64,000 nt of DNA from Nitrospirota bacterium (GTDB taxonomy: Bacteria > Nitrospirota > UBA9217), in NCBI GenBank assembly GCA_963790205.1, contig CAWBNQ010000001.1:672001-736000 (forward strand), read 5' to 3'. Position 1 is the stretch's first letter. Each line of letters starts with the position of its first letter. Below, in pieces: positions 2,421-22,499 of the stretch. The translations under genes were made by a program, and so were the position numbers. A model generated the notes under the pieces. It worked only from the letters and a program-made list of their open reading frames with translations. It ran no database searches and had not been told where the DNA came from.

Positions 2421-2852
2421 AATAAACAGAGGAATTAAAGAGGTTTTTTGCTTTTAAGACAGATATTAAGTGTAGGACATATGTAAATTTTCGTATTTTG
2501 CGGACTTCAATCAATAAAGAAAAGATGCATCGCATAAAGACAGGCAGATAACCTCAGCTACAACATGATACCTCCGCACTCCAGACATTTTGCGAACTTT
2601 CAGTTGTATATGAAAATAATGGCGTGAGGGGCGCGGCTTTTAGCGACCCTCTCGACGCGTCTCGTTTACGTGCGGTTTCTGCTCTTCCGAGGCTTACTCC
2701 ATTTCAGACACTACGTTATATATGGGTAGAGCATGAGGTTAGATTCTCCCATTAAAGTATAGGGAAAATTATCTTCAAGACTACCCAAAATAGAAACCTC
2801 CTGCTAAGAATAAGTTTATAGCGAAACTAAATTCTTGTGGCAGGAGGTTCCT

Positions 2853-4160
2853 ATGAATTATGTAGATGATATCAGACTTGAGCAGTTTCTTCAACTGAAG
2901 AAAGAAATTCGCGGTTCGGAAAAGCATTTGATCGTCGGCATTGACGCGGCCAAGGAGAAGCACAACGCTTTTTTCGGTACGGCACGCGGAAAAACGCTGG
3001 TTAAGAATCTGGTCTTTGACAACACGCTTGAAGGCTTTCAAAAGCTGCTCGCCTATGTCGAGCGAATCAAAGTTCAATATAGCCTGACCACGGTCGTTTT
3101 CGGAATCGAGCCGACGGCGAACTATCACAAGCCCCTGGCGGAGCATCTGATCAAGTGCGGGCACATGGTCGTTCTCGTGGGAGGCGTCGCGGTCAAGAAC
3201 AACCGGCAGCTTCTGGACGGCCGCTGGGACAAACATGACGTCAAAGACGCGGCAAACGTCGCAGATCTTATCGCCCAGGGGAAGTGCCTGTTTTACGAAT
3301 ACCCCCTGATGACACTGCGGAACGTGCGCGTCCTGATCGCACTCAAACGGCGTTTAAAGAGAAGGGAACACGGCATGAGCGTATGTGTTCGCAATCACCT
3401 CATCGCGCAGTATTTCCCCGAGTTGGACCAACACTACGGCCCATCGGAAACCCTGACGGTGGTAAGGGAATGTCTTGACCCCTCGGAGATCGCCGGCATG
3501 GAATACGATGCCTTCTGCCGCACCGTCGCGCCGGGCAAAATGACGCTGGCGAAGGGCCGCAGGGTGGGAATGATCTGGAGGGCCGCGGTTGATTCCATCG
3601 GCTGCACTATGGGAGAAGCGGCGTCTTTCGAAGCTCAAGTCATGGTGGACGGCCTGAAGCAGATCAGGCAAACCATCAAGTCGGTGGAGGAAAAACTCGA
3701 AGATGCCTGCATGGAATTTCCGGAGTACACCTACTTGCTGAGCATTCCGGGGTTCGGACCGGATGTTTCCTCAAAGGTGCTTGGGGCCATTGGAAATCCA
3801 CGCCGCTTTACGAGCGCCAAGCAGGTATTGAAAATGGCAGGCCTCGACCTGTGCGCGGATCGAAGTGGCAAGAAGTCCACCAGCGCGATACCGGTCATCT
3901 CCAAGCAAGGCAAGGCCGATCTCCGCTACGGACTGTATCAGGCGGCATTTATCGCCTCGCTTAAGAACAAGGACTTTATCACCTACTTTACGAACAAGCT
4001 CAAGGGCCGGGCAAAGGAGAAAGGCATCGTCACAAAGATGCGCGTCAAGCTGGCCGCGAAGCTCCTGGTTATCGCTTGGACGCTGATGAAAAAAAAAGAA
4101 TGCTTTGATCCGAAATATCTCAAACAGGAGGATGAGGCCGCGAATAAAAAAGCGGCATGA
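2853..4160 (+). CDS. IS110-family transposase/recombinase (DEDD RuvC-like domain plus Tnp domain)
   Basis: VGIDAAK, GIEPTANYH, KHDVKDA (D-E-D-D); SIPGFG, RRF.SAKQ, RSGK catalytic-Ser motif; RBS GGAGG before ATG 2853. Confidence 0.93.
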   Translation: MNYVDDIRLEQFLQLKKEIRGSEKHLIVGIDAAKEKHNAFFGTARGKTLVKNLVFDNTLEGFQKLLAYVERIKVQYSLTTVVFGIEPTANYHKPLAEHLIKCGHMVVLVGGVAVKNNRQLLDGRWDKHDVKDAANVADLIAQGKCLFYEYPLMTLRNVRVLIALKRRLKRREHGMSVCVRNHLIAQYFPELDQHYGPSETLTVVRECLDPSEIAGMEYDAFCRTVAPGKMTLAKGRRVGMIWRAAVDSIGCTMGEAASFEAQVMVDGLKQIRQTIKSVEEKLEDACMEFPEYTYLLSIPGFGPDVSSKVLGAIGNPRRFTSAKQVLKMAGLDLCADRSGKKSTSAIPVISKQGKADLRYGLYQAAFIASLKNKDFITYFTNKLKGRAKEKGIVTKMRVKLAAKLLVIAWTLMKKKECFDPKYLKQEDEAANKKAA

Positions 4161-4184
4161 TCCGTGAAACGTAAAAAACCAATT

Positions 4185-4366
4185 TCGGCGAGAGAGCCCG
4201 GGACACTACGTTGAGGCTACGACCTCGGTGGGGACAATACAGGACCTCTCGTTTGAACGATAGAATCTGGATAAGGTATTCTGGGCGGCCAAACTGAAAG
4301 CGCGGCATGCCGAATAGGCTGTAACGATTAGAGTTATCGTTCGTCTGGATGCGAGAGACTCGCCGA
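4185..4366 (+). ncRNA. Candidate IS110 bridge/seek RNA
   Basis: Stems 4185-4192/4359-4366 and 4255-4262/4335-4342; GACACTACGTT (4202-4212) is identical to the left target flank 2707-2717. Confidence 0.65.
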
Positions 4367-4698
4367 TCAAAGCGATGCTGGCAGGAATGCCGGGAGGAAA
4401 GCTGCGTCTTCAATCGACGCAGAAAACCATCTGATTGAAAATTATGAAAACTAAACTGTCACTTGACGGGAGCGTTATAGTATGTCCTCAAGATTCTGCT
4501 ATCACAGCAGACCTTAGCAGGCACACCTTTTCCGACTAAGCAACACGTCACCACTCACCGTTAACAAAGATTACTTCACCGAAGCATTACCCTAAATGTC
4601 GAAGCGTCTCGACCATCCTCCTGCCGCTACGGGCTTCTTGAACACTGGATTGGGTACGATGTGAAAATGTCGTCTCAATCCTTAAAGGTTAGGCCTCG

Positions 4699-5130
4699 CT
4701 ACCTTCCGGCGATAGTCCATGCTGCAAACACGAGCAGTGCTCCAAATCCAACAACAAAGCCACCGACTTGGATTGTGTCGGCGACCTTTCGCCGCCAATT
4801 GAGTTTCCAACGCCACTCCTTGGCAGACTTTTTCTCATAGTCGAGACCCCAGGAGATGTAGTACTGAGCCCAGAGTCGCATATGAAATATTCCTGCGATC
4901 GTCGAGATCGCTAGCGCAGCCCATCCTGCTAAGAGTGCAGCCTTCATAGCTGCAGAGATCGGACTACTGCCAAGGATATCCTTGGTGAACGTAACGGAAA
5001 AGACGAATGCGCCGGCCGCAATTGACATCAAATGCTTGATGTACTCGATTCTGTAGTTGTTCCCTAGGCCAATATCCAGATGGGCTTCTGAGAGCGTTCG
5101 ATTATCTGTTTCATGTGTTTTCTCGTTCAT
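4699..5130 (-). CDS. Hypothetical membrane protein (about 3 TM helices)
   Basis: Three hydrophobic segments; start chosen at MNEKTHE with GGAGAG RBS. Confidence 0.7.
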   Translation of the reverse strand: MNEKTHETDNRTLSEAHLDIGLGNNYRIEYIKHLMSIAAGAFVFSVTFTKDILGSSPISAAMKAALLAGWAALAISTIAGIFHMRLWAQYYISWGLDYEKKSAKEWRWKLNWRRKVADTIQVGGFVVGFGALLVFAAWTIAGR

Positions 5131-5254
5131 CAGAGACTCTCCTTTAAATGTGCTGGCGGCACAGATGTGAGGCAACACGCGCGTGAACCGCAAGCATTTC
5201 GCGGCGACGCGCAGGTTGGGCCATATTGGCCGTCTATTGACGGCGCTTGTCCTC

Positions 5255-6172
5255 TTATGGAAGCTTATTCTTTAGCAGCTGCGAGCGGATATGTTTCATT
5301 ATATGAGCCTGATGCGAAATGATATTGTCATTAGAACGCTTGAACACGTCACCAAACTTAGTCCCTTGGTTTTTCTGAAGACGGGCCTCGTCTGAAAACA
5401 AACATTCTTTAGAAGAACTAACGTAATTGCACAACCATGTCAATTTTGAAGACAACGGAGTTTCTGCTGCAATCATCTTATCGCTCGCCGTTTCCTGCAA
5501 GATGTTATCAATTTCATCAGCTAAATAAAAGTCACCAGCGATTGGATCGTAACCGAGATAATCAACAAAATATAGACCATCGGTATCAACACATACCATG
5601 TGAGCTATGCGATTTTTTATGAGTATAGGTATCTTTGGAATAGGGTCTGAAAGTAAAATTTTAATTAATTCGTCGTCAATTACTGCCCGGGGGTACAAAG
5701 CGGCCCTGGATTCAATGCGGTAAGCTTTGACTAAAGCTTCTCCTAAGACCATATCTCTCTTGTGAAATAAACGGCCACAAGAGATGCCGCCTCGCGTACG
5801 AACTCCTAGGCTTAGAAGACCCCTTTGTAACCAAAAAACCGATTGAAGACAACGTAATATTGGGACGACTCTACTATTCAAAGAATACTCGTTATCTCTT
5901 TCACGTTCAGGGAAAGACATCGTTATTGCATCAGAAAGCAATGTAATCTTGTCATACGCACCGAATGGCTTATCAAACTGTATTTGAACTTCTTTGCCAG
6001 TTCGCACATGGGGCAGTGAAAAAAATACTTCTTTTTTACTTCCTACTAAAGCGGAAAACAAACTATATATTGCTTGGGCATAATTTTCAGATTGATCTGT
6101 TGCAAGCATCTGGTCAGATATTCCAAGAACATCGATAAATGCTACATACCTATTTTTGTATTGCAGGTGCAT
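5255..6172 (-). CDS. Class III nucleotide cyclase-like fold protein
   Basis: YVAFIDVLG, LLSDAITM, RGGISCGRL…GEALVKAYRIE, YPR motifs resemble the two metal-binding Asp and the RxGI.xG segment of AC/GC domains. Confidence 0.6.
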   Translation of the reverse strand: MHLQYKNRYVAFIDVLGISDQMLATDQSENYAQAIYSLFSALVGSKKEVFFSLPHVRTGKEVQIQFDKPFGAYDKITLLSDAITMSFPERERDNEYSLNSRVVPILRCLQSVFWLQRGLLSLGVRTRGGISCGRLFHKRDMVLGEALVKAYRIESRAALYPRAVIDDELIKILLSDPIPKIPILIKNRIAHMVCVDTDGLYFVDYLGYDPIAGDFYLADEIDNILQETASDKMIAAETPLSSKLTWLCNYVSSSKECLFSDEARLQKNQGTKFGDVFKRSNDNIISHQAHIMKHIRSQLLKNKLP

Positions 6173-6241
6173 TCAATCACTTTTTAGACAATCAAATTAA
6201 ATTAAGAAATCTTTCGTAGCGTTGGAAGTTTCTATCAGATG

Positions 6242-6871
6242 TTAGGTCGGTTTTTTATCAATACCGTGCTTTTCATATACCTTCGATTTTTCCGGCTGTG
6301 CCCAGTGGGTATGAGGAAACGTCGGGATTTCCCGATCGAATTCTTTCAACAATTCTTTTCTTGCATCAGCCCAAAGCGCAAAGATTTTATCTCTCACAAT
6401 TTTTCCATCATCAGTTGTGATTTGCTTGTTATATCCCAAATCACTTATCAAACGGAGTATATCCTTGACCGGTTCAAATGGATAAAGACCGATTTTGTTA
6501 TCAGTTTCACCCAAGTTCATGAAGACACCCCGAACCTCTTCAATAGCAGCACTGAGACTACAAAGAGTTTCACTATACTGTTCCTTAGTAGGGTACTCGA
6601 TATGAGTATACTGACTTGCTGTCTGGACCGCCTTCACTAAGGTGCTCCACAAAAGCCGCAATTGCTGCATATAGCTTGAGCGTCGTTGCAAACAATAGCC
6701 AAGCCAAGCTGCGGGAATAGCAATTATAAATGGAATCATGTCCTTATACGTTGAATAGATCACAGAGTTAGTTGTTTTGTCATATAATCGAAGCGATATG
6801 CCCAAAGCAACTGCCGTAAGGTAAATAACGCTGGCTACGAAGAACCACCTGAATAATTGTCTTTTTGTCAT
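6242..6871 (-). CDS. Hypothetical protein with two N-terminal TM helices
   Basis: 209-aa ORF with two hydrophobic segments followed by a helical soluble region. Confidence 0.7.
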   Translation of the reverse strand: MTKRQLFRWFFVASVIYLTAVALGISLRLYDKTTNSVIYSTYKDMIPFIIAIPAAWLGYCLQRRSSYMQQLRLLWSTLVKAVQTASQYTHIEYPTKEQYSETLCSLSAAIEEVRGVFMNLGETDNKIGLYPFEPVKDILRLISDLGYNKQITTDDGKIVRDKIFALWADARKELLKEFDREIPTFPHTHWAQPEKSKVYEKHGIDKKPT

Positions 6872-7238
6872 ATTCTATTTTTTACGCTCGAATTAAAGGC
6901 ACAGCTGGGCCGCCCCAGTTGCCACGCTTTCATATTTTCGAAAGAACATCTTATTGACTATTATGAACCAGCCATCTATAGGGATATAGAGCTATCTACC
7001 GGTATATACTTTTCGAGGTTTGCTTATTTCACGAACCAGATCCCGGAGGAACCGATCCGCTACCATATCGTACAATGCCACGAATATATGCCGAATCCCG
7101 TGGCATGTCAATCGCCCGAGATGGATATAGAGGGGTAGCAGCCAATCAATTCCACTTGTAGTATTGGAATTTCGCGGACCCGTAACTAAAACAAGTGCAG
7201 AAAGAATTCTTCGAGATGTAGAAAAGGTTTATTCTGTA

Positions 7239-7823
7239 TTAATGCTTCTTTGTAGAATGCTCTTGCCGGTTTATAATTTCCTCAGAGCTTATAAACATAT
7301 AACCTTGATTCAAAACTTTGTTATATTCCATTACGATGTTGGTCGCATTTGTAAACCAGTAATATTTATTCTTCAATTTATTCGGTTTGTCCGGCCTGCC
7401 ATATTTATGAGCTGTGACCTTCTTGAGTTTATTGAAATTGTCATATCCTGCAAATTTTATATCCACATCGGATAGTTTATTTTGCCAAAATCCATATTGA
7501 ATGCTTGTAAGTGTTACCCCTCCGACTTCAAGTGGATCGTCTTTTCTAGAATAAAACTTGACTCCTCCGTAGCTGGGATCTGTTCTGGGATGGATCATCA
7601 CGTCTTTTACCAAAGAAAAATCAGTACCCCAACTAATGCCTCTGAACCCCTCCGCCTCTTCGGATATGCCTTTCGTTGAGGATGCAAATGATAACGCAAT
7701 CACTATGATAAAAATCGCTACCCGTTTTATAACAACCTCGCTTTTATTACGAATGGTAAAAGCAATAGTCTTGGCCAGATTAATCTCCGGAATAACTATC
7801 CAAATCGGGCGAAACAGGGCCAC
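7239..7823 (-). CDS. Hypothetical exported protein (start uncertain)
   Basis: Signal-like KRVAIFIIVIALSFA followed by GFRGISWG motif. Confidence 0.6.
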   Translation of the reverse strand: MALFRPIWIVIPEINLAKTIAFTIRNKSEVVIKRVAIFIIVIALSFASSTKGISEEAEGFRGISWGTDFSLVKDVMIHPRTDPSYGGVKFYSRKDDPLEVGGVTLTSIQYGFWQNKLSDVDIKFAGYDNFNKLKKVTAHKYGRPDKPNKLKNKYYWFTNATNIVMEYNKVLNQGYMFISSEEIINRQEHSTKKH

Positions 7824-7849
7824 TTATCTACCGAATATGCAGTTGAGTC

Positions 7850-8401
7850 TCATCTGGGAACGCATCTCTCTGACAAGCGGCGTAAATCAGCAGAGTAACA
7901 AGCTGGAAACAATACACATAGTTGTTCAAACGTCACAGCATTAAGACTTCCTGCAATTGCACGAGCACGATAAGCTGCAGGAAAGGTACCCCCAGGAAGC
8001 GCACGAGTCAATTGAAGCGCCTCAAGGTAATTTCCAGATTGAGGGACTTGAGCAGCAAGGCCGTATAGGCCTTGCGCGTAAATAGAAAACTCAACGGCGA
8101 CCCCTTCCTCAAGGAAGTTCGTGTTGCTTACAGTCGGATTTAATAAGTGAATCGTCTCGTGAGCCATTTCGTACACGACGGTAGGCCAATAGATTTTGCT
8201 AGTCGGGCTGAGCTCAGCAAACGCACCATCGAGCGTAGGTGTATTGCGTAGATGAGGTCCGTTGTCGTGAAAAACGGGTTGATAGATTGTTTTCGTTCGG
8301 TCACGTTCGCCGAGAAGTTTTTCGGCCAGTGTCAGCAGTTCTTGCTGTAAAGCCCAAAGGCCTGGATAGTCATGTTCCGGAATCGAGGTGGGTAGTTGCA
8401 T
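7850..8401 (-). CDS. HExxH zinc-metallopeptidase-like protein
   Basis: YEMAHETIHLL followed by FLEEGVA (zincin third-ligand motif). Confidence 0.65.
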   Translation of the reverse strand: MQLPTSIPEHDYPGLWALQQELLTLAEKLLGERDRTKTIYQPVFHDNGPHLRNTPTLDGAFAELSPTSKIYWPTVVYEMAHETIHLLNPTVSNTNFLEEGVAVEFSIYAQGLYGLAAQVPQSGNYLEALQLTRALPGGTFPAAYRARAIAGSLNAVTFEQLCVLFPACYSADLRRLSERCVPR

Positions 8402-8444
8402 ATTGAGCTATCGTTATCGCTTTTCTGAGTTCAGGTTGGGGCAA

Positions 8445-9488
8445 CTAAATATTTTCCCCGTAGTATTGCTTGTAAACATCTTTAAAGATGAGCGGGAAAT
8501 TACTCGTGAATTCTCTAAAACCTTCGCTATTATCCTGGTACTCATAGTGTCTCAGATGTTTAAAGTCAAAGGGAATGTCAGATATATCCTGAGTAAGGAG
8601 GATTGCAGGTTTTCCGATGGCATGAACAATTCCTACTTCGTACAGGACATTCGGATTTTTTGCTGTCAAATCAGCAACAATAATTGCGCATTGGTTTATT
8701 TTAGTCCATATATCCTCAATGATAATAGGTCCGTTCAAATTATCCGCACGTAGGCATTGAAATCCGAGTGCTTCAACATTTTCTCTTATCAACTCTTTGT
8801 AGACATGATCGGACCATTCCTTTTTAAAAGGCATCAATACGAAGCAAAGTCTCGGATCTATTTGTTCAATCTTCGTTCTAAAAATTGGATGCGGTTTATT
8901 TGAGGATGAATTATCTTCGGCTGAATATCCTAACGGATTTGCTACGGGTCTTACTTTTGGTGATGATTCTCTTTGGTGATTAATTATCAACTGCTCGATG
9001 TCTCGATATTTTATATATTCGTCGAAAACCTCATTTCCGTCTAGGGCAAATTTGGCAATGCCGCCGTAATTAGTGAGTGAATATGAAGTAGATGTGAAAC
9101 TGCCAAGTCCACTAATGAATCGCAGGATAACCTCAACTTCATATTTGTCAATGCCAGACTGTGTTGATATCTCTTCTGATGATATTTCTCTCAGCTCCGG
9201 ATTTTTAAATAGGAAGTCTTTTATGAGCAGAATGACCTTATGTGTTTTTTCTATTAAATCTGTTTCCGGATCTAAATGCCATATACCTAGAAGGGTTAAT
9301 CTGTCTTCTCCTTCTAGCAATCGTCTGTCAATCTGATAGGGATTAAAGTCGTCAGGTATTTTTCCGAGTAATTCAATCTTTAAACTTCTATGGCCTGCCT
9401 TTTCTCGTGTCTTAAATTTTGTATATATCGCTCCAAGCCACGCTTTAGCGTCATCGGTAATTTCTATTTTAGGAAAATTATAGGGCAT
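8445..9488 (-). CDS. Protein with C-terminal nucleoside 2-deoxyribosyltransferase/TIR-like domain
   Basis: CFVLMPF, CLRAD, IVADLTAKNPNVLYEVG, GKPAILL, IPFDF motifs. Confidence 0.75.
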   Translation of the reverse strand: MPYNFPKIEITDDAKAWLGAIYTKFKTREKAGHRSLKIELLGKIPDDFNPYQIDRRLLEGEDRLTLLGIWHLDPETDLIEKTHKVILLIKDFLFKNPELREISSEEISTQSGIDKYEVEVILRFISGLGSFTSTSYSLTNYGGIAKFALDGNEVFDEYIKYRDIEQLIINHQRESSPKVRPVANPLGYSAEDNSSSNKPHPIFRTKIEQIDPRLCFVLMPFKKEWSDHVYKELIRENVEALGFQCLRADNLNGPIIIEDIWTKINQCAIIVADLTAKNPNVLYEVGIVHAIGKPAILLTQDISDIPFDFKHLRHYEYQDNSEGFREFTSNFPLIFKDVYKQYYGENI

Positions 9489-9597
9489 GGAGATTCCATT
9501 GCTATTTAACGGTTGCTCGCGACTTTGTCGAGTCCGTTATAGTTGATATTTCCAACTGTCTACATGACTAGACTGTCTTCACTCTGCCGGCAGTCTG

Positions 9598-10779
9598 TCA
9601 ATTTATCGAAAAAACCTCATGCAATAGTGATTGAAATAAATGTTCTGCCTGTCGTAATGATTCCACCTGTGTCGTATGCAGACCTTCGTGGTTCCGAATG
9701 CCCTCAACATATTTTATTTGCAGCGGCATCGGGGGCAGTGGAATCCGTAATTCGGACAAGGTTGATGTGTTCATGAAAGTGTACGCATCTTCTTGCCCGG
9801 TCTTTAACTTACCAATTTTTGAAGCAAAATAGGTCATCAGTATCACGAAATATTCGGGCAAGCACTTTGTCGGATCAAGAGAAAGTCTAATAGTGTTACT
9901 GTGAATGATGGACTTCTCATAGCTGGTCTTAACTATAGCCATTCTTCCGACAGTTCCAGCACGCGATACGATGATATCACCGTTCCTAACCGTGTAAGCT
10001 TTAAGCTCCTCATATTTTTGGGGAGTAATGTAAAAACATTTGTCCTCGCGGAATTCGTTCGCACCCACGCAGTCCACCGTCCATACCGGGATGCCGCTTG
10101 AAACATATTCATCCTTCTTAAGGGCGCTACCAAATGGACCACATTTTACACCATCTTTATTGTTAGGGAACAATTCTTCAACCTGATAAAGAGAATAGTT
10201 GTTTGGATTGTGAAAGGGATCGCCAAAAAATTTCAGGAAAACTGATGGAAGCACTGTATCATTAATGTCCAGAGCATATCGGCGCATTTGTCTCAAATTG
10301 TCGGCACTTTTTAACATCTCAGCTATAAGCTTTTGCTCAGGCATATCGCGATAGGGTATTTCAACAGCCTCCATAATTTCTTTTGTGACCTCGTCAAAAG
10401 TTGCTCCTCTCCCTTTATTGACGATGGCAGGTGTCAAATATTTAAGCGCGAAGTATCCGTAAAGTGGATTGAGATATTTATTTGGAATAATATTTTTGAA
10501 ACCTTGATTTGTACAAAGCGGGAAGGCAGTAACGGCACAATGTCCGATTGGCGCTCGGCTACTAAACAAAATGGTTCCTGTCGGTAGCATTTTTAAAGAA
10601 CAGCTGTCATATCCTTTTTTTGATATTTTTTTTAATGCTCCGTGAAAATATATTTTGTCATTCGATGATAAATCCGCGGGTGTTACCCATGGGATATCAC
10701 CATTCCAATATTTTGGCTCGTTAGTTCTAGGCGTAGATCCAGAGACTATTTTACCGAGCTCACTTAGAGGCTTTATCAT
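9598..10779 (-). CDS. hsdS: Type I RM specificity subunit
   Basis: SGSTP…YWNGDIPW, SSRAPIG, TNQGF, GPFGS, IPLPP..LQ; two TRDs. Confidence 0.92.
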   Translation of the reverse strand: MIKPLSELGKIVSGSTPRTNEPKYWNGDIPWVTPADLSSNDKIYFHGALKKISKKGYDSCSLKMLPTGTILFSSRAPIGHCAVTAFPLCTNQGFKNIIPNKYLNPLYGYFALKYLTPAIVNKGRGATFDEVTKEIMEAVEIPYRDMPEQKLIAEMLKSADNLRQMRRYALDINDTVLPSVFLKFFGDPFHNPNNYSLYQVEELFPNNKDGVKCGPFGSALKKDEYVSSGIPVWTVDCVGANEFREDKCFYITPQKYEELKAYTVRNGDIIVSRAGTVGRMAIVKTSYEKSIIHSNTIRLSLDPTKCLPEYFVILMTYFASKIGKLKTGQEDAYTFMNTSTLSELRIPLPPMPLQIKYVEGIRNHEGLHTTQVESLRQAEHLFQSLLHEVFSIN

Positions 10780-12493
10780 ATTTAGAAATTACCTTGTTTA
10801 GCAAAGCTATTTTTTTTGTAGACGCTATATCAATTTGCTGTAGACGTCTGAGAGTCATCTCTGGCTTCTCGAAAAACACTTCTTCATATTCCATCTGCCT
10901 ATAACGGCTTACGGATAAGTCGTAGTTCTTATTCTTAACATTCTCTTTGGTAATCCAGAACTGACGGCCGAGCTGATTTATTTCTTGCTGTAATGGTGAT
11001 ATTTTCAATTGAAGATTTGCTAGCTCACCCTCTGCTTTTTCCCTTGTCTTGCGCGCCTTATCTGAATCCTTCTCGGAAGCAATTACTTCCTCAAATTTCA
11101 ATCGATGAATTATTTGTTGATGTTTTAACTGTTCTTTCTTTAGCGGTGCAACTTGCTGCTTTAGCTTCTCTAGTCGGTCCGTTCTTTTTTGCATAAATTT
11201 CGTCTCACTACGTCTATCCCAGCATTCAAGAAGGTCCGGGATATCATTCTCTGATACCTTTTCTCTTTTATCATCAAGCGAAAATCCATCATGCTGCATG
11301 TCATAAAACCATATTTTATCGGTTGTTGCGCCCTTTGTAAAAACAAGCACCGCAGTTGATACACCGGCATACGGGCGGAATACACCTGACGGCATAGAAA
11401 TAACGGCGTCCAGACGGTTTTCCTCAATTAGCTTCCTTCTTATTTCCACATGGGCTTTAGATGAGCCGAAGAGGACTCCGTCTGGAACAATTACCGCACC
11501 TCTGCCACCGTTTTCCAACAACCTTACAAACAGGTGAAGAAACAGTATCTCTGTCTTTTTCACCTTGGTCGGAAGTGTCGGATTTACATCGAGTGAGTCA
11601 ATTGCTCCTTTGAATGGCGGATTTGCAAGAACCACATCATAGCTTCGCTCTTCGCTATATGCTTTTGACAGGGTATCCTTCCACCTAAAGTTCGGTTCAT
11701 CGATTCCATGGAGAATAAGGTTCATGCAGCCGATTCGGAGCATGGTCATGCCTGAGTCGCTGTCATAACCAGTAAACGCCTTTGATTGAAGAAATTTATG
11801 CTCCTCTTTTGAGAGCTTATCCCCAACAAGAAAGTGTGGCCAACCTTCCTCGTCATACTTGAGAACATCTTTCTGTGTGTGTCTCTCAAGAATGTGCTGA
11901 TAAGCGTTAACCAGAAACCCGCATGTGCCGGCTGCTGGATCACAGATACGCTCACCCGGACGAGGGTCGATTATTTTCACCATCATGCGGATAATGTGGC
12001 GAGGGGTTCGAAACTGTCCATTCTTTCCAGCAACGCTAAGATGGTTCAGGATGTATTCGAATATATCTCCCTGCACATCCTGGTTCTGGGAAGAGAGCTG
12101 CATTTCCTCAAGTGATTTGCACGCCTCGATGAGCAAGCTGGGTTTACTGATCTTAAATTCAGCATTGGCCATGTACTCCCCGAAAGCGCCGCCCTCACCA
12201 CCAAGACCCTTCATAAATGGGAACACTTCTTCCTTCACATGCTTTAATGCCTTTTCAGCAGGAAGTTGCGTCCAATAATCCCAGCGCAGTTCTCTCTTAG
12301 GAAATATCGGCTTATACTTAGTACCCTTCCTCTTCGCTGCATGTATGCCATCTTCTTCCTTTTCATTAAGCCTTTTTAAGAAAATTAAGTAGGAAAGTTG
12401 CTCGATAACATCTGCCGGATTTGCTAATCCGCCGGACCAGAGCTTATCCCATAACGCATCAACTTTTGAACGAAGTACTGAGTCGGTGAGCAT
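10760..12493 (-). CDS. hsdM: Type I RM N6-adenine methyltransferase subunit
   Basis: GQFRTPRHI, DPAAGTCGFL (motif I), NPPF (motif IV), VPDGVLFG. Confidence 0.95.
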   Translation of the reverse strand: MLTDSVLRSKVDALWDKLWSGGLANPADVIEQLSYLIFLKRLNEKEEDGIHAAKRKGTKYKPIFPKRELRWDYWTQLPAEKALKHVKEEVFPFMKGLGGEGGAFGEYMANAEFKISKPSLLIEACKSLEEMQLSSQNQDVQGDIFEYILNHLSVAGKNGQFRTPRHIIRMMVKIIDPRPGERICDPAAGTCGFLVNAYQHILERHTQKDVLKYDEEGWPHFLVGDKLSKEEHKFLQSKAFTGYDSDSGMTMLRIGCMNLILHGIDEPNFRWKDTLSKAYSEERSYDVVLANPPFKGAIDSLDVNPTLPTKVKKTEILFLHLFVRLLENGGRGAVIVPDGVLFGSSKAHVEIRRKLIEENRLDAVISMPSGVFRPYAGVSTAVLVFTKGATTDKIWFYDMQHDGFSLDDKREKVSENDIPDLLECWDRRSETKFMQKRTDRLEKLKQQVAPLKKEQLKHQQIIHRLKFEEVIASEKDSDKARKTREKAEGELANLQLKISPLQQEINQLGRQFWITKENVKNKNYDLSVSRYRQMEYEEVFFEKPEMTLRRLQQIDIASTKKIALLNKVISKYDKASK

Positions 12494-12501
12494 TACTCTC
12501 C

Positions 12502-15291
12502 TTACGCTGCTAGTTTAGCAGTTAAATCAATCAAATCCTTAATCTGCTGCGGAGAAAAATATCGTTCCACCGCGTTCCGTCCGAAAATCGTTAACGGCGG
12601 TTCGTAGAGATCGGCCTCGGAAATAGTCCTTTTCTGTAAGAAAACTTCTTGCACTGACCGAAGAAATCTGATCTGGTCCCCTGTATAGTTGTGGCTGGTA
12701 ATGTGCTCGTCAAAAGCCTGTTTAACTATATGCTGATAATCAGGCAGGTCGTCCATCTCGAGGATATACCAGATAAATCCAAGGAAATCGAAAGACCTTG
12801 AACCGGCATTAATATCTATGAAGTTTTTGCCGTATGCCTTCATAATATTCTGCTTCGTTACACGGAGATCGCTCTTGCCCAATTCTTGGCTAAGCGTCCG
12901 CTCTAATGCTGCCATATCTTCTAGGGAAATGGTTTTGCCTTCGCGTATGGCTTTAAGCGTGGGATGAGTTTCTGCGATTCTCAATATACGTGCTTCTATT
13001 TGTTTTCTGTATTCTTCAACATAAATCTGCTTGCCGCCTTCCCCGATGGTTATATATCCTCGGGTTGCAATGAAGTCTGGCAAGTCCAAATTAAGGAAAT
13101 AGCCCGGCCTGTCCCTTCGGTTCTTCATTTCCCCGGCAAAGTCAGTGATTATCTGATGTATCTGTTCCGAAGATGCAACCGCAAGATCCTGAGATAAGCT
13201 CAATTTCACTGAAGATTCTTTTGCCGGATTCTTCAATACAAACTCCGGTAATAAACTTACGTCCTCAGCAATAGAGGTTAATAGATCTGCTGACGGTTTG
13301 CTGCACATTATTTGAAGCTTCAAGCGCTCAAGCTTACTCGTAAATGTTTCTGCTGCAACATCCACATTGGGTACGTGACGCAGCAGAGGACCCACCTTGA
13401 GCCGCAAATAATTTATCTTATCAGTCGTCATAAAGAGCCAAAATGAATCTTCCCAAGCTTCCGACACTTCTCCCCACATTTTTCGAATCGGAAATGACTC
13501 GACAGGAATTCTCCCGATCATTGCACGCATGTCTTGCAATGCCTGTTGGTAAGTAAATGAGCCCTGGTCTCCAAGATTGTTTTCCAGCAACTTCAGCCGG
13601 GTATTGAATATTGAAACAAGAACCGGCACCTGAACATGCTGTTTTTCTTCAGTCTTTTTCTCGAAGTCGTTCTGCCAAAAGTCAATTATCTTGAATTCTG
13701 TTTTTTTCCCATCAGGAAGACGATCGCGATATCTACATGCCTCGTTATTTCTGGTTCCTCTACCGATCATCTGCCATAGCTTTATCGGTGATTGAACAGG
13801 CTTCATAAAAACGAGATTTACTACCTCGGGAACATCGACGCCAGTATCGAGCATGTCCACGGACAAAGCAATTCTCGGAAGATCATTCTTCTTGAACTTA
13901 GTTATTAAGCCGTCACCGTACGTGCCGTCGTGCACGCGCTCCATGCCGTGGTAAATCGTTTGAACCATACCAACATGCTGAGGATACATTTCCTCAAAGA
14001 CTAGTCTTATTCTTTCAGCGTGCTTCTTGGTTATAGCGAAAATTATAGTTTTCCCCACCAGGTGGCCAGATTTGTCCTTAATGCTAACATCCAGAATCTC
14101 TTCCCACTGCCTGCGAAGCGTATCTTTGTTGCTGACAAGTACTTCAAGATCTGTTCCTGAATAATCAATCTGGTCAGGGTCGAGACCTTGTTCAATTAGG
14201 GCATTACGCTCTTCCTCACTCAGGTCTGCGCCCTTAATACCCTTGCGCTGAAATCCTGTCTGAGCCTGATATAAGCTGAAGTCAACGAGATAGCGTTCTT
14301 TAATGGCTTGATCATAGGGATATAGGAATGTAGGTTCTGTTCCGCTGCATTTAAAGACAAGAAACGTATCGCGATCAATGAAGTTCGCCGGGGTCGCCGT
14401 TAGTCCGATCATCCTGGCATCAAAATACTCGATAACTTCCGTGAATCTATTGAAGATAGAGCGGTGTGCTTCATCAAATATAATAAGATCGAAGAATGCG
14501 GGGCTAAACTGCTCGAAGCAGCGCCCCATGGTCTGGAGTGTGGCCACGAACAAACGCTTCGTAGTGTCAATATTATTGGTGAACACCCGGTCCCGAGGCT
14601 CATTTGGAAGGTAGGTTTTGAAACCATCACCTAGTGCTTGTTCTACAAGTGCATCTCGATCAGCTACAAACAGGACATGCTGGGCCTGAGACGCCCTCAA
14701 GAACAGGTCAACCAGAGCCATCGTCGTCCGTGTTTTGCCGGTGCCCGTTGCCATTACGAGAAGGGCGCGTCGTTTCCCTTGGACAAATGCCTCAGAAACC
14801 CTCCGGATAGCTTCGTGTTGATAAGGACGATTTACGATCGAATTGCTGATTGAGAATGACGCCAGAGGTTTCTGATTCTGTCGGATAAATTGAAGCCTCT
14901 TGATGTCGTCAGGTGTGAAGAATCCAGCTACGAGCCGGGGATTGGCTACTCCTATTTCCCAGAAATAGGTCTCATGGCCATTTGATAAAAATCCGAAGGG
15001 TTGAAAACCTTGTCGCTTTCCAATTTCCTCGATATAATACTGCAGTTGTGCTTCGCCTTCCCGGGGGCTTCGGGAGGTCCGTTTGGCCTCGATTACAACG
15101 CAGACATTCCCCTCAGCGTCATACAGGCAATAATCGGTTACTCCGTTCCACGGCTCGGCATCATAACCGTCAACAGGAACCTCAAACCGGACTTGTGTAC
15201 GATTCTTCAGATCCCATTGTGCGTGCTCGAGCTGAGGATCAATACGCTTGGTTCGAGTTTTTGATTCGCTTTCAGACATGTCTTTAGTCAA
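12502..15291 (-). CDS. hsdR: Type I RM restriction subunit (EcoEI/EcoAI-like)
   Basis: DY…IEAK nuclease motif, MATGTGKT, DEAHRS, LTATP, QMIGRGTR, C-terminal LYEPP. Confidence 0.95.
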   Translation of the reverse strand: MTKDMSESESKTRTKRIDPQLEHAQWDLKNRTQVRFEVPVDGYDAEPWNGVTDYCLYDAEGNVCVVIEAKRTSRSPREGEAQLQYYIEEIGKRQGFQPFGFLSNGHETYFWEIGVANPRLVAGFFTPDDIKRLQFIRQNQKPLASFSISNSIVNRPYQHEAIRRVSEAFVQGKRRALLVMATGTGKTRTTMALVDLFLRASQAQHVLFVADRDALVEQALGDGFKTYLPNEPRDRVFTNNIDTTKRLFVATLQTMGRCFEQFSPAFFDLIIFDEAHRSIFNRFTEVIEYFDARMIGLTATPANFIDRDTFLVFKCSGTEPTFLYPYDQAIKERYLVDFSLYQAQTGFQRKGIKGADLSEEERNALIEQGLDPDQIDYSGTDLEVLVSNKDTLRRQWEEILDVSIKDKSGHLVGKTIIFAITKKHAERIRLVFEEMYPQHVGMVQTIYHGMERVHDGTYGDGLITKFKKNDLPRIALSVDMLDTGVDVPEVVNLVFMKPVQSPIKLWQMIGRGTRNNEACRYRDRLPDGKKTEFKIIDFWQNDFEKKTEEKQHVQVPVLVSIFNTRLKLLENNLGDQGSFTYQQALQDMRAMIGRIPVESFPIRKMWGEVSEAWEDSFWLFMTTDKINYLRLKVGPLLRHVPNVDVAAETFTSKLERLKLQIMCSKPSADLLTSIAEDVSLLPEFVLKNPAKESSVKLSLSQDLAVASSEQIHQIITDFAGEMKNRRDRPGYFLNLDLPDFIATRGYITIGEGGKQIYVEEYRKQIEARILRIAETHPTLKAIREGKTISLEDMAALERTLSQELGKSDLRVTKQNIMKAYGKNFIDINAGSRSFDFLGFIWYILEMDDLPDYQHIVKQAFDEHITSHNYTGDQIRFLRSVQEVFLQKRTISEADLYEPPLTIFGRNAVERYFSPQQIKDLIDLTAKLAA

Positions 15292-15772
15292 CTAATAAGC
15301 ACTTACACGCTCAGTTTTCCGCGATAAGATCGTGGAATTGCACGATAGTCATCCAGCTGAAGTTTCTAAGCAGCTCACCGGCCGCGATGGAGAGGGAGTC
15401 GGCCAGGTTCTTGAGATCGCTGAATTGAGTCTAGTCGCAGTCGATCCGGAATATGATAACTTTTGCCGAATAGTTGCAAAGATTATCCGCAAACGACGCA
15501 GATATTTGTCACCGACCGACTTTACTACAGATCGTTACAAAAGTCCAGAATATGATGGGTATTTTGGTGGGAGCAAGTGCAGAGGAGGTATGATGCCGTT
15601 TAAAGATTATAAAGCTCAAATCATGACCGCAAGTCAGCTTCCGAATAAATCTCGTATTCTATTCTAACCAGCAAATCAAACATAGTATGTATCCCGGCAA
15701 AAGTGCTCATAAAGCGTTGCGGAGTTTTATCACCTAGTGCCTTGATCAAGGTACTCATCCCTTTGCAGAATC

Positions 15773-16012
15773 TTAAACGGGATCATTGATATTACTGGCG
15801 CTTTCAATACTTTTAATAAATCGGATAACGAACTGATGAAAAGGCAAACCATCAACTTCACCGATTTTGCCCGTAATTTTAGCGACATATTTGTCACGGT
15901 CTGCTCGTACACTTGCGACAACATCTCCATAGTTGATAGACAGGCTCATATTTGCCGTAGGATCGATAGGGTTGCTTGCTTTGCCAGTTTCACTTTTTGC
16001 CTTACGGTGCAT
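15773..16012 (-). CDS. Small hypothetical protein
   Basis: 79-aa ORF with GAGGAG RBS, divergent from the XRE gene. Confidence 0.45.
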   Translation of the reverse strand: MHRKAKSETGKASNPIDPTANMSLSINYGDVVASVRADRDKYVAKITGKIGEVDGLPFHQFVIRFIKSIESASNINDPV

Positions 16013-16180
16013 TTAATTCTCCTCTCGCTACCATTTATAAAACTGATACTCGCGAATTGCGATTCGCAGAACGTGTGTCTTAAGTCTACATTATATGACG
16101 GATTTGTCAATATTTTTCTATTTTTGATGTTGTGTTAAAAACCTCCTTGAAAGTTAATGATAACAAAACTTGGAGGACGC

Positions 16181-16504
16181 ATGAAACCGACAACGAAGAA
16201 GCTGCTGGGGGCAAGAATCAAAGAGCTGCGTAAATCAAGAGGCTTCTCGCAAGACGAGCTCGCGGAAAAAGTAGATATCGACGCCAAACACATGAGCCGC
16301 ATCGAAGTAGGTGGCAGCTACCCCTCCCTGGATACTTTGGACCGGATTGCCAAGGCACTCGGCGTCGAACTAAAAGATTTTTTCGATATAGTTCATGAAT
16401 CAAAGAGAGCCGATCTCATACGAGCAATAATGAGCTTGATCAAAGATGCTGACGATGCCCAATTGAAACTCCTCGTCAAAATTGCTCGCGCCACTGTACG
16501 CTAG
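16181..16504 (+). CDS. XRE-family HTH regulator (RM controller-like)
   Basis: LGARIKELRKSRGFSQDELAEKV…SRIEVG…PSLDTLDRIAKAL; GGAGG RBS. Confidence 0.9.
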   Translation: MKPTTKKLLGARIKELRKSRGFSQDELAEKVDIDAKHMSRIEVGGSYPSLDTLDRIAKALGVELKDFFDIVHESKRADLIRAIMSLIKDADDAQLKLLVKIARATVR

Positions 16505-16582
16505 TTTCAGGCAGACGAATTAAATCTCTCTAGTCCGCGGCGGGAGTCTCTGACTCAGTGCATGCTAGACTTTTCGCAAAGA

Positions 16583-17059
16583 TCAGCCAACCTCAAGCTC
16601 GTTAAAGGGAAACAGGTTATCCGAGGGAGCAATGTTGTTCGTGCTTATGTATTCTTTTAATTCCTGGAATAACTGCTCTGGCAGCATCATGCCTCGCGGC
16701 TGCCAAGAGGGTACGAATAATCTATCGGCTGAGACATCAGCGCCTTTAAGTCCCGCCAATTCATTGATACGCAGTTGATATATTAGCAACAATTCAAGAC
16801 ATAAGGTGAAGGGTTCCATCATTTTTTTATTATTTTCTTTTGTGCTCGCTGAAGTAGTAAGTTTGCTCTTGCTCAGCATTGGTAGAAGCTTCTCTGATAA
16901 AACCGCAATTTTCTCCCACTCGCCACTACGTTTTTTCATTTCTTTTAACCATCTCATTACTTCTACAAACTTTTCTCTTTCGGTCTTATGGTTTGTGTCT
17001 TCACAAATGCCGCGTATTATTCCGAGGGCGCAGGAAGCAGCTATTGTGTCTATATCCAT
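16583..17059 (-). CDS. Hypothetical protein with truncated tyrosine-recombinase-like C-terminal segment
   Basis: LELLLIYQLRINELAGLKGAD resembles box I (GxRxxEL..L…D); no box II. Confidence 0.5.
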   Translation of the reverse strand: MDIDTIAASCALGIIRGICEDTNHKTEREKFVEVMRWLKEMKKRSGEWEKIAVLSEKLLPMLSKSKLTTSASTKENNKKMMEPFTLCLELLLIYQLRINELAGLKGADVSADRLFVPSWQPRGMMLPEQLFQELKEYISTNNIAPSDNLFPFNELEVG

Positions 17060-17079
17060 TCGAGTTTCTCCTTGTATCG

Positions 17080-17556
17080 CTATTTGATACGCCTGATCTT
17101 CTCGTATTGTTTCAGTTTAGTCCGCAATAGGTCGATTTCTCGTTGGAAGCTCTGAAATCGATCCTTATAGTCATCATTCTCGGATTGCAGCCGATTATTT
17201 TCTCTTGCAAGATTCAACTTGTCGATCGACAGTTGTTTATTTGTCTGCAAAAGGATTTTATATCGTTCGTTGATGTTCGATGGTTCTACGTTGTTGTTTT
17301 TTTCAAGCGATATATTACTCTTATTTTTTACTTTCCGAATATATGCGAGTGCCCCGGGGTATCGGTAAATCGTATCTCTGCCAATTTCGGCTTCACGTGC
17401 TACTGACGTAGGGGTCATTTTGGTCCACTTACCGATTATCTGGGGCTTCCGGGATTCAATTCGCTGAATTGCCGAATGAATACGCTCTTCGGTTTGAGCC
17501 GTTCTTTTTGCTGCAGCTCTTTTGAGGGCTTCTGGATTTCCTTTTTTGGGCGTCAA
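17080..17556 (-). CDS. Small HTH plus coiled-coil accessory protein (Srap/GinD/TnpC-like)
   Basis: MTPTSVAREAEIGRDTIYRY HTH and C-terminal coiled coil; fourth gene of the recombinase operon. Confidence 0.7.
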   Translation of the reverse strand: MTPKKGNPEALKRAAAKRTAQTEERIHSAIQRIESRKPQIIGKWTKMTPTSVAREAEIGRDTIYRYPGALAYIRKVKNKSNISLEKNNNVEPSNINERYKILLQTNKQLSIDKLNLARENNRLQSENDDYKDRFQSFQREIDLLRTKLKQYEKIRRIK

Positions 17557-19342
17557 TCTTGTTCTCCTTATTAGATCCGCCTTGGAGTTTATTTATAATT
17601 GGCATGACAAAGGTGTCAAGCTGAGTCTTAATATATTGCCTGTTTATGGATTTATTTTTGCTCATCGATAGTAGTTTTTCGTGCTTTTCTTTTAAACGAA
17701 GCCAAAGGGGCAGATGTTCCTGAGTAACAACTGCATTGTCGCATATATTGGGATTGCATCTACATTCAAGGCCCGCCTCACATCTTGCCTGTTCGGGATT
17801 CCAGATGCATAGGCCGAGAAACGTGCTGCGAACATATAGATCTGCAATGATTTCTTTAAACAAACTTTCTTTCTCTCTCACTGTTTTGCCGCTAAAGTAG
17901 GCATCTCGATTATCAGCTATATGCTGGCCTCCCTTGCCCGCAAGAGCGATTGAATCCAGCAAGATTGGTCTCAGAATGTCCCGAGTCACTTCAATGCTCA
18001 TTGCGTAAACTTCCTGCTTCAAATCCTCGTCATCTGTTTCCGCATACCAGATGGTCATATCCATACTCAAATGCTTAAATTGTGTCTGCAAAAACTTTAA
18101 ATTACATTTATTTTCTTTCATCATATAATATGCAAAAGATCTTCTGAATTGATGGGTATGTATTCTCCACCGTTTACCATTATAAAGAGCCACATTGTTA
18201 TTTTTAATAAATTTTTTCAATTGACCATTGGCGCTCTGGTTTGACAGGATCATGACCCGATCGCCAGACTCGATCAGAAATAATTCTTTTAGCCCCGACT
18301 CCTCTCGTAACGGTTTCGTAAGCAAGGATAAAACGTCAACTGCTGTTTTAACAACTTTAGGTACCATCCAGTGTTCCAGTTTAGGCTGAGTGTGAGGCTT
18401 ATACGTGAGTGAAAAAATTTTATAAATAATGCCGCTGCCCTTTTTTTTCTTCTTTTTAATGCAATTATCTTGAATGCTGACAACTTCGGAGTCGCGCATG
18501 CCTGAGAAAAAGGCAATGATGATGTAGCAAGCCATTCTAAGATTTGTAACGTCTCGGTTTAGAGCGTGAATACTCGGTAAGTTATGTGTCTGGCAAAAAC
18601 GCGTGCGTGCCTTGTCTCGGAAGTTTGCCGATCGATTTTTAAATTGCTTTCTCAGATTTCGATACTCGTGATAAATATTAATGATAGAAACTTTTGTTTC
18701 TACATGTTTTAAGGCCTTGCCAATGAGGTCCGCGAGTACTATCTCGGGAATGCGAAGAGTCTTGTTCTTTTCTTGTTCGGCTAAATTATTACCGACCAAG
18801 CTTCCGGTTGGTTCGTAGTTGAAGGGATGTTCGCTAATTGCGTCATCAATCACCGATTTTTGTCTGAAAAGATCGACGAGAATATCAAGAAGTGCGCCTT
18901 TTCTTGATTTTGAGATTGATAAGGAAAGTACATATTTTAAATAATCTTGGCAGGCCGTTTTATCAAGCTCGGCAAATTTATTATAGGCTCTGCTAGCCAT
19001 CCATTTCAGTAGTTTTCTTAAAGGATATATTTTGCTCAAGATAGTAATGCGCTTTACGCGAGATGAGGAGCTGAATAAGAGAGAGTATATGAAGTTTCTG
19101 GTGCTATCATACAATTCTTCATGCTTCGCATCTGTGATCTTTGTCTTGTCGTTAAATACAAATCTGTTCCAGTCAATAATCTTTCGGTAATCGGTTATAT
19201 TCTTATTGGGGATTTCTTTGACAAAATCCCAACATTGGTCACTATAATTCGACACTTTAGAAACAAAGAGATTCTTTCTTCTTTTTTGAGAAATTTTATT
19301 TATGATGATCGGGCCAGACTCTGTATTTAAGCGAGTTATCAT
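17456..19342 (-). CDS. Large tyrosine recombinase (IntB/GinC-like)
   Basis: Complete catalytic set: SGMRDSE, HQFRRSFA, FKH…MTIWY; Cys-rich C-terminus. Confidence 0.85.
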   Translation of the reverse strand: MITRLNTESGPIIINKISQKRRKNLFVSKVSNYSDQCWDFVKEIPNKNITDYRKIIDWNRFVFNDKTKITDAKHEELYDSTRNFIYSLLFSSSSRVKRITILSKIYPLRKLLKWMASRAYNKFAELDKTACQDYLKYVLSLSISKSRKGALLDILVDLFRQKSVIDDAISEHPFNYEPTGSLVGNNLAEQEKNKTLRIPEIVLADLIGKALKHVETKVSIINIYHEYRNLRKQFKNRSANFRDKARTRFCQTHNLPSIHALNRDVTNLRMACYIIIAFFSGMRDSEVVSIQDNCIKKKKKKGSGIIYKIFSLTYKPHTQPKLEHWMVPKVVKTAVDVLSLLTKPLREESGLKELFLIESGDRVMILSNQSANGQLKKFIKNNNVALYNGKRWRIHTHQFRRSFAYYMMKENKCNLKFLQTQFKHLSMDMTIWYAETDDEDLKQEVYAMSIEVTRDILRPILLDSIALAGKGGQHIADNRDAYFSGKTVREKESLFKEIIADLYVRSTFLGLCIWNPEQARCEAGLECRCNPNICDNAVVTQEHLPLWLRLKEKHEKLLSMSKNKSINRQYIKTQLDTFVMPIINKLQGGSNKENKIDAQKRKSRSPQKSCSKKNGSNRRAYSFGNSAN

Positions 19343-21402: not shown

Positions 21403-22499
21403 TTAAATTTATTTTTGAACATGCGCATGATCTCTTTGTCGAGCTCAGCGACCGTCTTCAATATGGTTTCTGGGTCTAAATGCGTATAAATTTCAGTGGA
21501 CGATATCCGGACATGTCCTAGAAGCCTTTTCAGAGCGTATATGTCCTTTGTTTTTGCGTAATACCTGAAAGCAAATGTATGCCTGAACATGTGGGGCGTC
21601 AGTCGAAACCCCGCTTTTCGTCCCCAATTTCGCACTCGGTTCCATAATGCCTTTCGTGTAAGTGGACCCCCTCTTGAGTTGAGCCAGAAAGATTTTATAT
21701 TTTTTTTCTTGAGTCGCTTGATCTTTATTGAACGATCGTAGTCTCGCCAATTTAAAAGTGCTACAAGGAGAGGACGCCCGATATATACAGTTCTTTCTTT
21801 ATTGCCCTTCCCTATGACCTGAAACTCATACGTTTTTCTTTTGCTAAGCAAGTCTTCTTCTGGTATATCATCAAGGTTGATACCGACGAACTCAGCTAAT
21901 CTAGTTCCGGTAGAGATTAGAAGCGCATAAATCAGTTTATCCTCTTCGGAATCTAAAACCTTCTCAATGAGAATTTTTTGCTGTTCTTTTGAAATATAAG
22001 GTGCTTCTTTGCGGATTTTAGAAGGCACGACATCGGCAACATCTATAAAAACGGGCGATTTGTATGCATGAGCAAAAAAACCTTGATCTCCTGATATAGT
22101 GGCTTGCTGCTTATTTAAGGTAAAAGGGAGTTTGGATATAAAACCTTCCCTAAACGCCCATTTGTAGAATCGCACGTTCGTACTGATATAATCATGTATC
22201 GAATTAACTTCGATCACCTTTCCAGGTCCGTTTGCACATTCAAGATAACTTCGATATCTTGCAATATCTTTCTCAATAACGTGATTCCATTCTAAGTTGT
22301 TTTTGTCAAGCCAGTCGAAATAATACAGAGAATGATATCCGTATGTAGACCACGTTTTATCGCTTTGCGTCCTGCCTCTGACAAGGGCCAAATATCGAAA
22401 CCAACGGTTGGGGACAGTGATCAACTCCATTTTGTCATTGACCAGGAAAGGGATGCCTACCTTGTCATGTTCTTTGCCTGTGAAAAAGATTTCAGCCAT
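21393..22499 (-). CDS. XerC/D-like tyrosine recombinase (IntA/GinA-like)
   Basis: TGTRLAE, GKGNKER, PHMFRHTFA, LGHVRISSTEIY. Confidence 0.92.
   Translation of the reverse strand: MAEIFFTGKEHDKVGIPFLVNDKMELITVPNRWFRYLALVRGRTQSDKTWSTYGYHSLYYFDWLDKNNLEWNHVIEKDIARYRSYLECANGPGKVIEVNSIHDYISTNVRFYKWAFREGFISKLPFTLNKQQATISGDQGFFAHAYKSPVFIDVADVVPSKIRKEAPYISKEQQKILIEKVLDSEEDKLIYALLISTGTRLAEFVGINLDDIPEEDLLSKRKTYEFQVIGKGNKERTVYIGRPLLVALLNWRDYDRSIKIKRLKKKNIKSFWLNSRGGPLTRKALWNRVRNWGRKAGFRLTPHMFRHTFAFRYYAKTKDIYALKRLLGHVRISSTEIYTHLDPETILKTVAELDKEIMRMFKNKFKWT

Follow-up and report, generated by a model that had tools for sequence, protein, structure and literature searches.

The 64,000-nucleotide stretch of DNA analysed here (the window) very probably carries an IS110-group element whose predicted bridge RNA directs it to the 14-nt tip of a TIRtron, and this reading extends to a proposed circular form, a predicted junction promoter, and putative half-match scars. 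Four guide segments in the RNA downstream of the gene would steer the recombinase to a 14-nt site (7 + GT + 5), which in this copy is the outer tip of a TIRtron terminal inverted repeat (TIR). Sequence comparison strongly supports an RNA-guided IS110 recombinase whose predicted bridge RNA is readable and lies downstream of the gene. The first-pass annotation had already placed guides in the downstream non-coding region of an IS110 element, and this was borne out by guide-flank covariation and by covariation within the RNA.

The ends of the element are marked by the following features.
2715-2716, plus strand: left GT core, placed by flank divergence in all copies and relatives and by empty sites.
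2717-2852, plus strand: left end, 136 bp, with the right donor arm at 2717-2721 and the predicted -10 half of the junction promoter.
4477-4483, plus strand: left donor arm (element DNA), kept whatever the target and missing in empty sites.
4484-4485, plus strand: right GT core, placed by conserved right ends and the empty site.

The element occupies 2717-4483 and is flanked by two GT cores. The genome holds four full copies, and two of them are 99.7-99.9% and one is 90.6% identical to the window copy; the three copies that are at least 99.7% identical each lie at a different site. These four copies and 71 fetched related loci, mostly from Nitrospirota and Thermodesulfobacteriota by record title, form the comparison set of 75. 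The left flanks of copies and relatives part just before GT-TATATA, and 53 of 56 parsed left ends open with TATATA. The right ends of relatives retain TAG(T/G)AT-GT irrespective of the sequence beyond, and 4476-4483 is retained there with any target. An empty homologue of the window's own site (G031) reads left target-GT-CCCC and is without 4476-4483; an empty paralogue of the C5 site (G000 C3:426815) also reads left target-GT-CCCC. Because 4476-4483 is kept regardless of target and is absent from empty sites, the core is GT, not the CGTTA proposed at first, and the target is 14 nt. The core dinucleotide is GT at both ends in the 14-nt register, with no other duplication. Flank divergence, conserved right ends, and empty sites together set the element at 2717-4483 instead of the 2707-4487 annotated earlier, and the earlier 22-nt target holds eight element bases. 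That version, with a CGTTA/TATA core and a 22-nt quasi-palindromic target that includes TATAGTAT, draws on a 7-bp repeat and a bulged complement that do exist in the window copy. It is nevertheless highly improbable, because the TATAGTAT segment is lacking in the empty sites, persists at the right end of relatives whose targets differ, and matches the IS621 left donor arm (PMC11208160, accessible sections), while scars and a mini element terminate at GT. The segment belongs to the element as its left donor arm. A left boundary at 2740 with subterminal repeats was ruled out, since the left flanks of relatives diverge at 2714 and the repeats are unconserved. The mini element (L150, G069:C135:4140) is about 100 bp long, keeps the two ends with their GT cores, lacks the gene and the RNA, lies in a CCCC-class site, and likely moved in trans. 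A second left-end remnant (G000:C6:46362) breaks at +21 without GT.

A single gene lies between these ends.
2853-4160, plus strand: IS110 recombinase, 435 aa, with D31, E86, D129, D132, and S338-G339.

The product of this open reading frame matches PF01548 and PF02371 and scores above the cut-off of NF033542. A DEDD RuvC domain and a Tnp domain with the catalytic serine are both present; D31, E86, D129, and D132 are invariant in 29 aligned homologues, and S338 is found in at least 90%. Domains, NF033542, and catalytic residues thus uphold the initial call of a 435-aa IS110 recombinase. Homologues of this recombinase clade number in the thousands (5,336 of 8,000 scored candidates), and two occur in Durrant's tree, neither with an ISfinder name. 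Subterminal inverted repeats in IS1111 geometry reach 0-5 of 12 matches over 20 distinct end pairs. The bottom-strand guide (4203-4211) precedes the top-strand guide (4229-4235), which is the order of the IS110 group according to the accessible part of PMC11187229. The same source gives 395-455 aa for IS110 subgroup proteins, so the protein that had been called long is of ordinary size. The element is without the 11-13-bp subterminal inverted repeats of the IS1111 group, and its protein has 435 aa, not 330-350 aa. Therefore, the lack of subterminal repeats, the IS110-type guide order, and the protein length place it in the IS110 group. Its RNA lies downstream of the gene, whereas IS110-group RNA is usually in the left end. 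A downstream RNA region is a documented minority layout of the IS110 group (PMC11187229; PMC11208160, as far as their available text goes), and it is no defining exclusion from the group.

The region behind the gene contains the predicted RNA.
4184-4367, plus strand: predicted bridge RNA, about 184 nt, with an outer stem, a target-binding arm, and a donor-binding arm.

An alignment of 29 sequences, from which long-insertion, misparsed, and duplicate rows were excluded, supports 40 pairs; 97.8% are paired and 18 show compensatory change. None of 500 shuffles reached this level, and slid controls gave 35-42%. The single-sequence folding energy is ordinary (z -0.69), and Rfam gave no match. The small hairpin noted at the outset (GAGG-CTACGA-CCTC, 4213-4226) is kept in 29 of 29 aligned relatives. 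The second stem-closed loop, which had been suggested to bind the donor, corresponds by RNA covariation to the donor-binding arm and is closed by 4255-4343. In two relatives (L055, L058), the apical stem of the donor arm contains long insertions, suggesting that extra sequence is tolerated there.

The target-binding arm carries two guides, and the second reads the right flank.
4203-4211, plus strand: left target guide (7 nt plus core), matching at 5.06 of 7 against 2.87 when shuffled, over 18 distinct guides.
4229-4237, plus strand: right target guide (5 nt plus core) with the target-loop handshake at 4236-4237, matching at 3.72 of 5 against 1.72, over 12 distinct guides.
4486-4490, plus strand: right target, the outer tip of the TIR, complementary to 4229-4233 with one wobble.

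The identity of the 11-mer at 4202-4212 with 2707-2717, on which the first-pass annotation was built, was confirmed; the 11-mer was contained in 13 of 200,000 base-shuffled right ends. Guides were parsed in the 75 loci, giving a left guide with its left flank in 41 and a right guide with its right flank in 50; loci without such a pair were truncated or unparsed. Guides are common to kin, and matches were collapsed to distinct guides. Guide and flank covary across homologues, as had been expected, with p ≤ 5e-5 on the left and on the right. Guide-flank identity is 0.67-0.90 over the seven bases beside the core on the left and falls to 0.31 at the 8th; on the right it is 0.64-0.95 over five bases and 0.30 at the 6th. 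The guide match stops at seven and five bases, which refutes an unusually long quasi-palindromic target of 22 nt. The predicted target is the standard 14-nt IS110 register, 7 + GT + 5. A guide match that does no guiding and arose by chance, or through duplication of some flanking sequence, would agree with the shortness of the matches. Such an origin is very hard to reconcile with covariation over 18 and 12 distinct guides together with the handshake base, and with the conserved RNA scaffold. The right guide had been described as a bulged complement of the right flank. It consists of the right guide at 4229-4235 and the handshake base at 4236, and the further pairing of 4237-4240 is unsupported as a rule. 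These four bases could pair with the left donor at the tested position in 19 of 27 relatives and in 7 of 14 of the G class, and extended pairing with element DNA was rejected as a rule on these counts.

In a tree of 29 proteins, members of the CCCC target class fall on either side of the midpoint root, and no fewer than six further right-target classes occupy separate branches. Comparison shows that the predicted guides of relatives were redirected to other sites on several occasions, and that the handshake base changed with them. Four relatives with a poor match to their own flank (L027, L033, L050, L053) probably moved in trans. One Nitrospirota genome (L006-L032) has more than 20 copies reprogrammed to an AGGTG-class site, and these sites are the middle of long degenerate palindromic repeats.

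The donor-binding arm carries the remaining two guides.
4273-4280, plus strand: left donor guide, with the first core position mismatched in a subclade.
4320-4327, plus strand: right donor guide (4320-4325) and donor-loop handshake (4326-4327), marked by the 4209-4326 covariation.

The donor guides and handshake bases match the element ends, and the donor covariation consists of few independent changes. Position 5 of the left donor guide equals donor position 5 in 26 of 27, again with few independent changes. The core base of this guide is G in 16 of 29 and T in 13 of 29; core pairing is missing in 13 of 29, including the window element, which has the mismatch. Positions 4209 and 4326 covary most strongly in the RNA; with wobble included, they are complementary in 28 of 29. 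This pair joins the last base of the left target guide (4209) to the donor-loop handshake base (4326), and both read target position 7, as is likewise described for IS621 in the available text of PMC13626964. TAACG at 4322-4326, taken earlier as a complement of a CGTTA core, is instead the right donor guide with handshake base 4326. The first target-loop handshake base is able to pair with donor position 7 in 26 of 27, and the second is mostly unpaired (A opposite A in 24 of 27). By analogy with the known family, the handshake bases would favour insertion. The donor junction is identical to the IS621 donor at 11 of 14 positions (PMC11208160, supplement). In one relative (L029), the protein clusters with the T-donor clade, yet its RNA and its right end belong to the G-donor type, and a module swap is possible.

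Two predicted expression signals lie at the ends of the element.
2790-2855, plus strand: predicted hairpin over the ribosome-binding site, an inverted repeat whose AGGAGG stem folds in genuine left ends.
4463-4468, plus strand: outward -35 hexamer of the predicted junction promoter, placed by its spacing to the left-end TATATA after circularisation.

As in the known family, the ends would join at GT to form a circle, in which a junction promoter TTGACG-17-TATATA would transcribe the gene and the RNA. The spacing after circularisation is 17 bp in 49 of 54 parsed relatives and 18 bp in the other 5. The predicted -10 matches at 4 of 6 positions, without the conserved last T. A linear promoter scan found no plus-strand promoter. 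The search for the circle junction gave one metagenome-contig match, which was an unrelated promoter, and no end-to-end joint in four runs of contigs. The modelled ribosome-site hairpin is conserved among left ends and, as in the known family, would damp translation. An isolated copy of this hairpin lies at C3:438253-438308 in the same genome (G000). Positions 2723-2729 and 2781-2787 of the left end may form another 5' stem; they are complementary by eye here and in distant relatives.

The target lies at the edge of a repeat.
2694-2714, plus strand: solo TIRtron-type terminal repeat, inner part, with the left target at 2708-2714 and an empty homologue in G031.

The target sequence fits the terminal inverted repeat of TIRtrons, which are Y1 tyrosine-transposase elements. 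TIRtrons, or TIRYT, are TnpA_Y1 subclass 2.1 (PMC3733652; 10.1101/279083, accessible parts). The reconstructed site scores 35.1 on a partly circular TIR profile, against 1.8 for the 99.999% quantile of the genome. The empty-site motif is found in 20 of 101 genomes (19 of 60 within the family and 0 of 40 outside), with 3 control hits. Among 30 fetched loci, three genomes have a Y1_Tnp+HTH gene between inverted motif copies spaced 1,063-1,086 bp, another genome has a degenerate partner repeat, and nine motif loci are 65-97-bp dimers. Evidence independent of the motif comes from relatives L034, L049, L051, and L130, which are inserted 46-59 bp from the end of a Y1 gene; L049 sits in the second TIR of a complete element. 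Published TIRtrons, as outlined in PMC3733652, share a Y1_Tnp with a C-terminal HTH between terminal inverted repeats starting GGGG, as well as short dimers; the repeat here differs in starting GGGGACGT, 6 of 8 positions of the published GGGGWSAS. In the window's genome, each of the three near-identical copies sits in a solo repeat that departs from the guide at one position, and every site within one mismatch of the guide is already taken. None of the genome's own sites has an inverted partner in the flank that was searched; they are solo TIR copies. The diverged copy (C5:354181) reaches only 0.9 on the TIR profile. An insertion at four bases from the tip would likely put the TIR out of action.

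Target choice might also depend on the stem-loop that the TIR itself forms upstream of the left target, similar to the dual match reported for ISPpu10 (10.64898/2026.03.19.712850, accessible sections). An upstream TIR hairpin is present at the sites of all three near-identical copies and of the C3 scar, but many CCCC-class relatives are without one, and this requirement is considered unlikely. The genome holds no non-TIR site within one mismatch, so it offers no contrast for the dual-match reading. The preferred target is the 14-nt tip as read by the guides. Two other candidates were rejected. An imperfect palindrome that we take to be attC-like lies 55 bp upstream and is not the insertion site, and CGTC REPs are without transposase genes. 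The palindrome occurs in the window at 2622-2660, just upstream of the insertion, and at 41215-41242; 25 of 61 genomes carry it in multiple copies, along with a different short repeat. An island after ftsH (4699-22499) contains small minus-strand genes for which Pfam gave nothing, HsdS and HsdM of a type I restriction-modification set, and three large ORFs whose likeness to an integrase trio is one of position only.

Remnants of the left end point to loss of the element through an internal site.
2738-2744, plus strand: internal GT and right-donor-like arm, the recurrent scar breakpoint (six clear scars in five genomes).

A left-end motif search gave 73 matches in 22 of 401 genomes. The scar survey covered 50 distinct left-end matches, 49 of them with enough sequence, and took in one of the 23 in G075; classes were assigned by script and then by eye. 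Full left ends make up 31 of the 49. Six of the 49, in five genomes, are 23-bp scars that read left target-GT-21 nt-GT-right target, four in CCCC and two in AGGTG sites. Three further left ends break at the scar GT and continue into unknown flank, and three break at other internal GTs. The breakpoint GT is 2738-2739, followed by the right-donor-like arm. The right side of one scar (L139) is 90% identical to the right flank of a full element (L028). The internal GT, 21 bp into the left end, may mimic a right donor half-site. Recombination of this half-match with the right junction would then sometimes delete nearly the whole element, leaving a 23-bp scar with the target side rejoined. Half-match recombination has been reported (10.64898/2026.08.31.748434), as have recurring partial circles with one donor match (10.64898/2026.08.14.744561), each in the accessible text. 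The scars could instead stem from host slippage, or from direct strand transfer that moved the left end into a new target and was then aborted, an account that keeps a real though minor share of the probability. CazIS110-1 shows direct left-end transfer without target rejoining (10.1101/2025.10.25.684509), and target rejoining by IS621 in vitro is about 34-fold rarer (10.64898/2026.08.31.748434), again as far as these sources are available. However, slippage is unlikely when GT is all that is shared and one breakpoint recurs across five genomes and two target classes, and excision would be expected to yield, as its reciprocal product, the recurring partial circles that have one donor match (10.64898/2026.08.14.744561). 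Excision via the internal site is the preferred reading, with the scars as putative natural traces of target-side rejoining. These scars suggest that the element is likely sometimes cut out and not solely copied. Such chromosomal scars were not found described in the literature search.

A broader interpretation is tentative. An unnamed IS110 clade with an IS621-like donor and a downstream bridge RNA may have preyed on TIRtron ends since before the Nitrospirota/Thermodesulfobacteriota branch split, clipping the last bases of the repeat and thereby immobilising the TIRtrons. Its built-in second donor half-site 21 bp inside the left end would give true excision, target-side rejoining, and countable 23-bp scars. 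If this is true, the scars document cut-out excision in nature for a family that is currently argued to work by copy-out.

The class of mechanism is known, and the element is not a new system. IS621 and ISCro4 (IS622), as presented in the available text of PMC11208160 and PMC13626964 (PDB 8wt6, 9t56), share with it the DEDD and SG domains, a target and a donor of 14 nt in which the 2-nt core occupies positions 8-9, handshake bases, the guide order LTG-RTG-LDG-RDG, the donor likeness given above, and a target repeat tied to Y1 transposases (REP for IS621). In those elements the RNA is in the left end and the core is CT, whereas here the RNA is behind the gene, the core is GT, and the target is a TIRtron end. 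The protein here is also longer by about 100 residues in the stretch between its domains (query 168-272 unaligned), and both RNA arms branch from one closing stem. The "green" group of IS110-group elements, by its description in PMC11187229 (Fig. 1b, available sections), likewise has no subterminal inverted repeats, a downstream RNA region, and a long protein within the range given above. The IS1111 group shares the downstream RNA, the junction promoter (predicted here), and insertion into the terminal repeat of another element. It differs from the present element in its subterminal repeats, shorter proteins, and guide order. IS4321 and IS5075 reportedly target Tn21 terminal repeats, and other IS1111-group targets are REP for ISPa11 and attC for ISKpn4. 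ISPpu9 and ISPpu10 are also repeat-targeting IS110 elements (PMC8450116, PMC12288879, 10.64898/2026.03.19.712850), and ISPpu9 has a 5' hairpin over the ribosome site (PMC8450116). Their non-canonical circles can be likened to the partial-circle products considered here, their bridge RNA differs in being described upstream, and no chromosomal scar was found described in the accessible parts of this literature. TIRtron ends are a target class for which the accessible TIRtron/TIRYT literature searched gave no link to IS110. The recurrent 23-bp scars make the copy-out versus cut-out question testable at one defined internal site. The new content consists of the TIRtron target, the natural reprogramming, and the scars, and a naturally reprogrammed, readable bridge RNA in a long-protein, GT-core, downstream-RNA IS110 clade is a candidate for ortholog screens.
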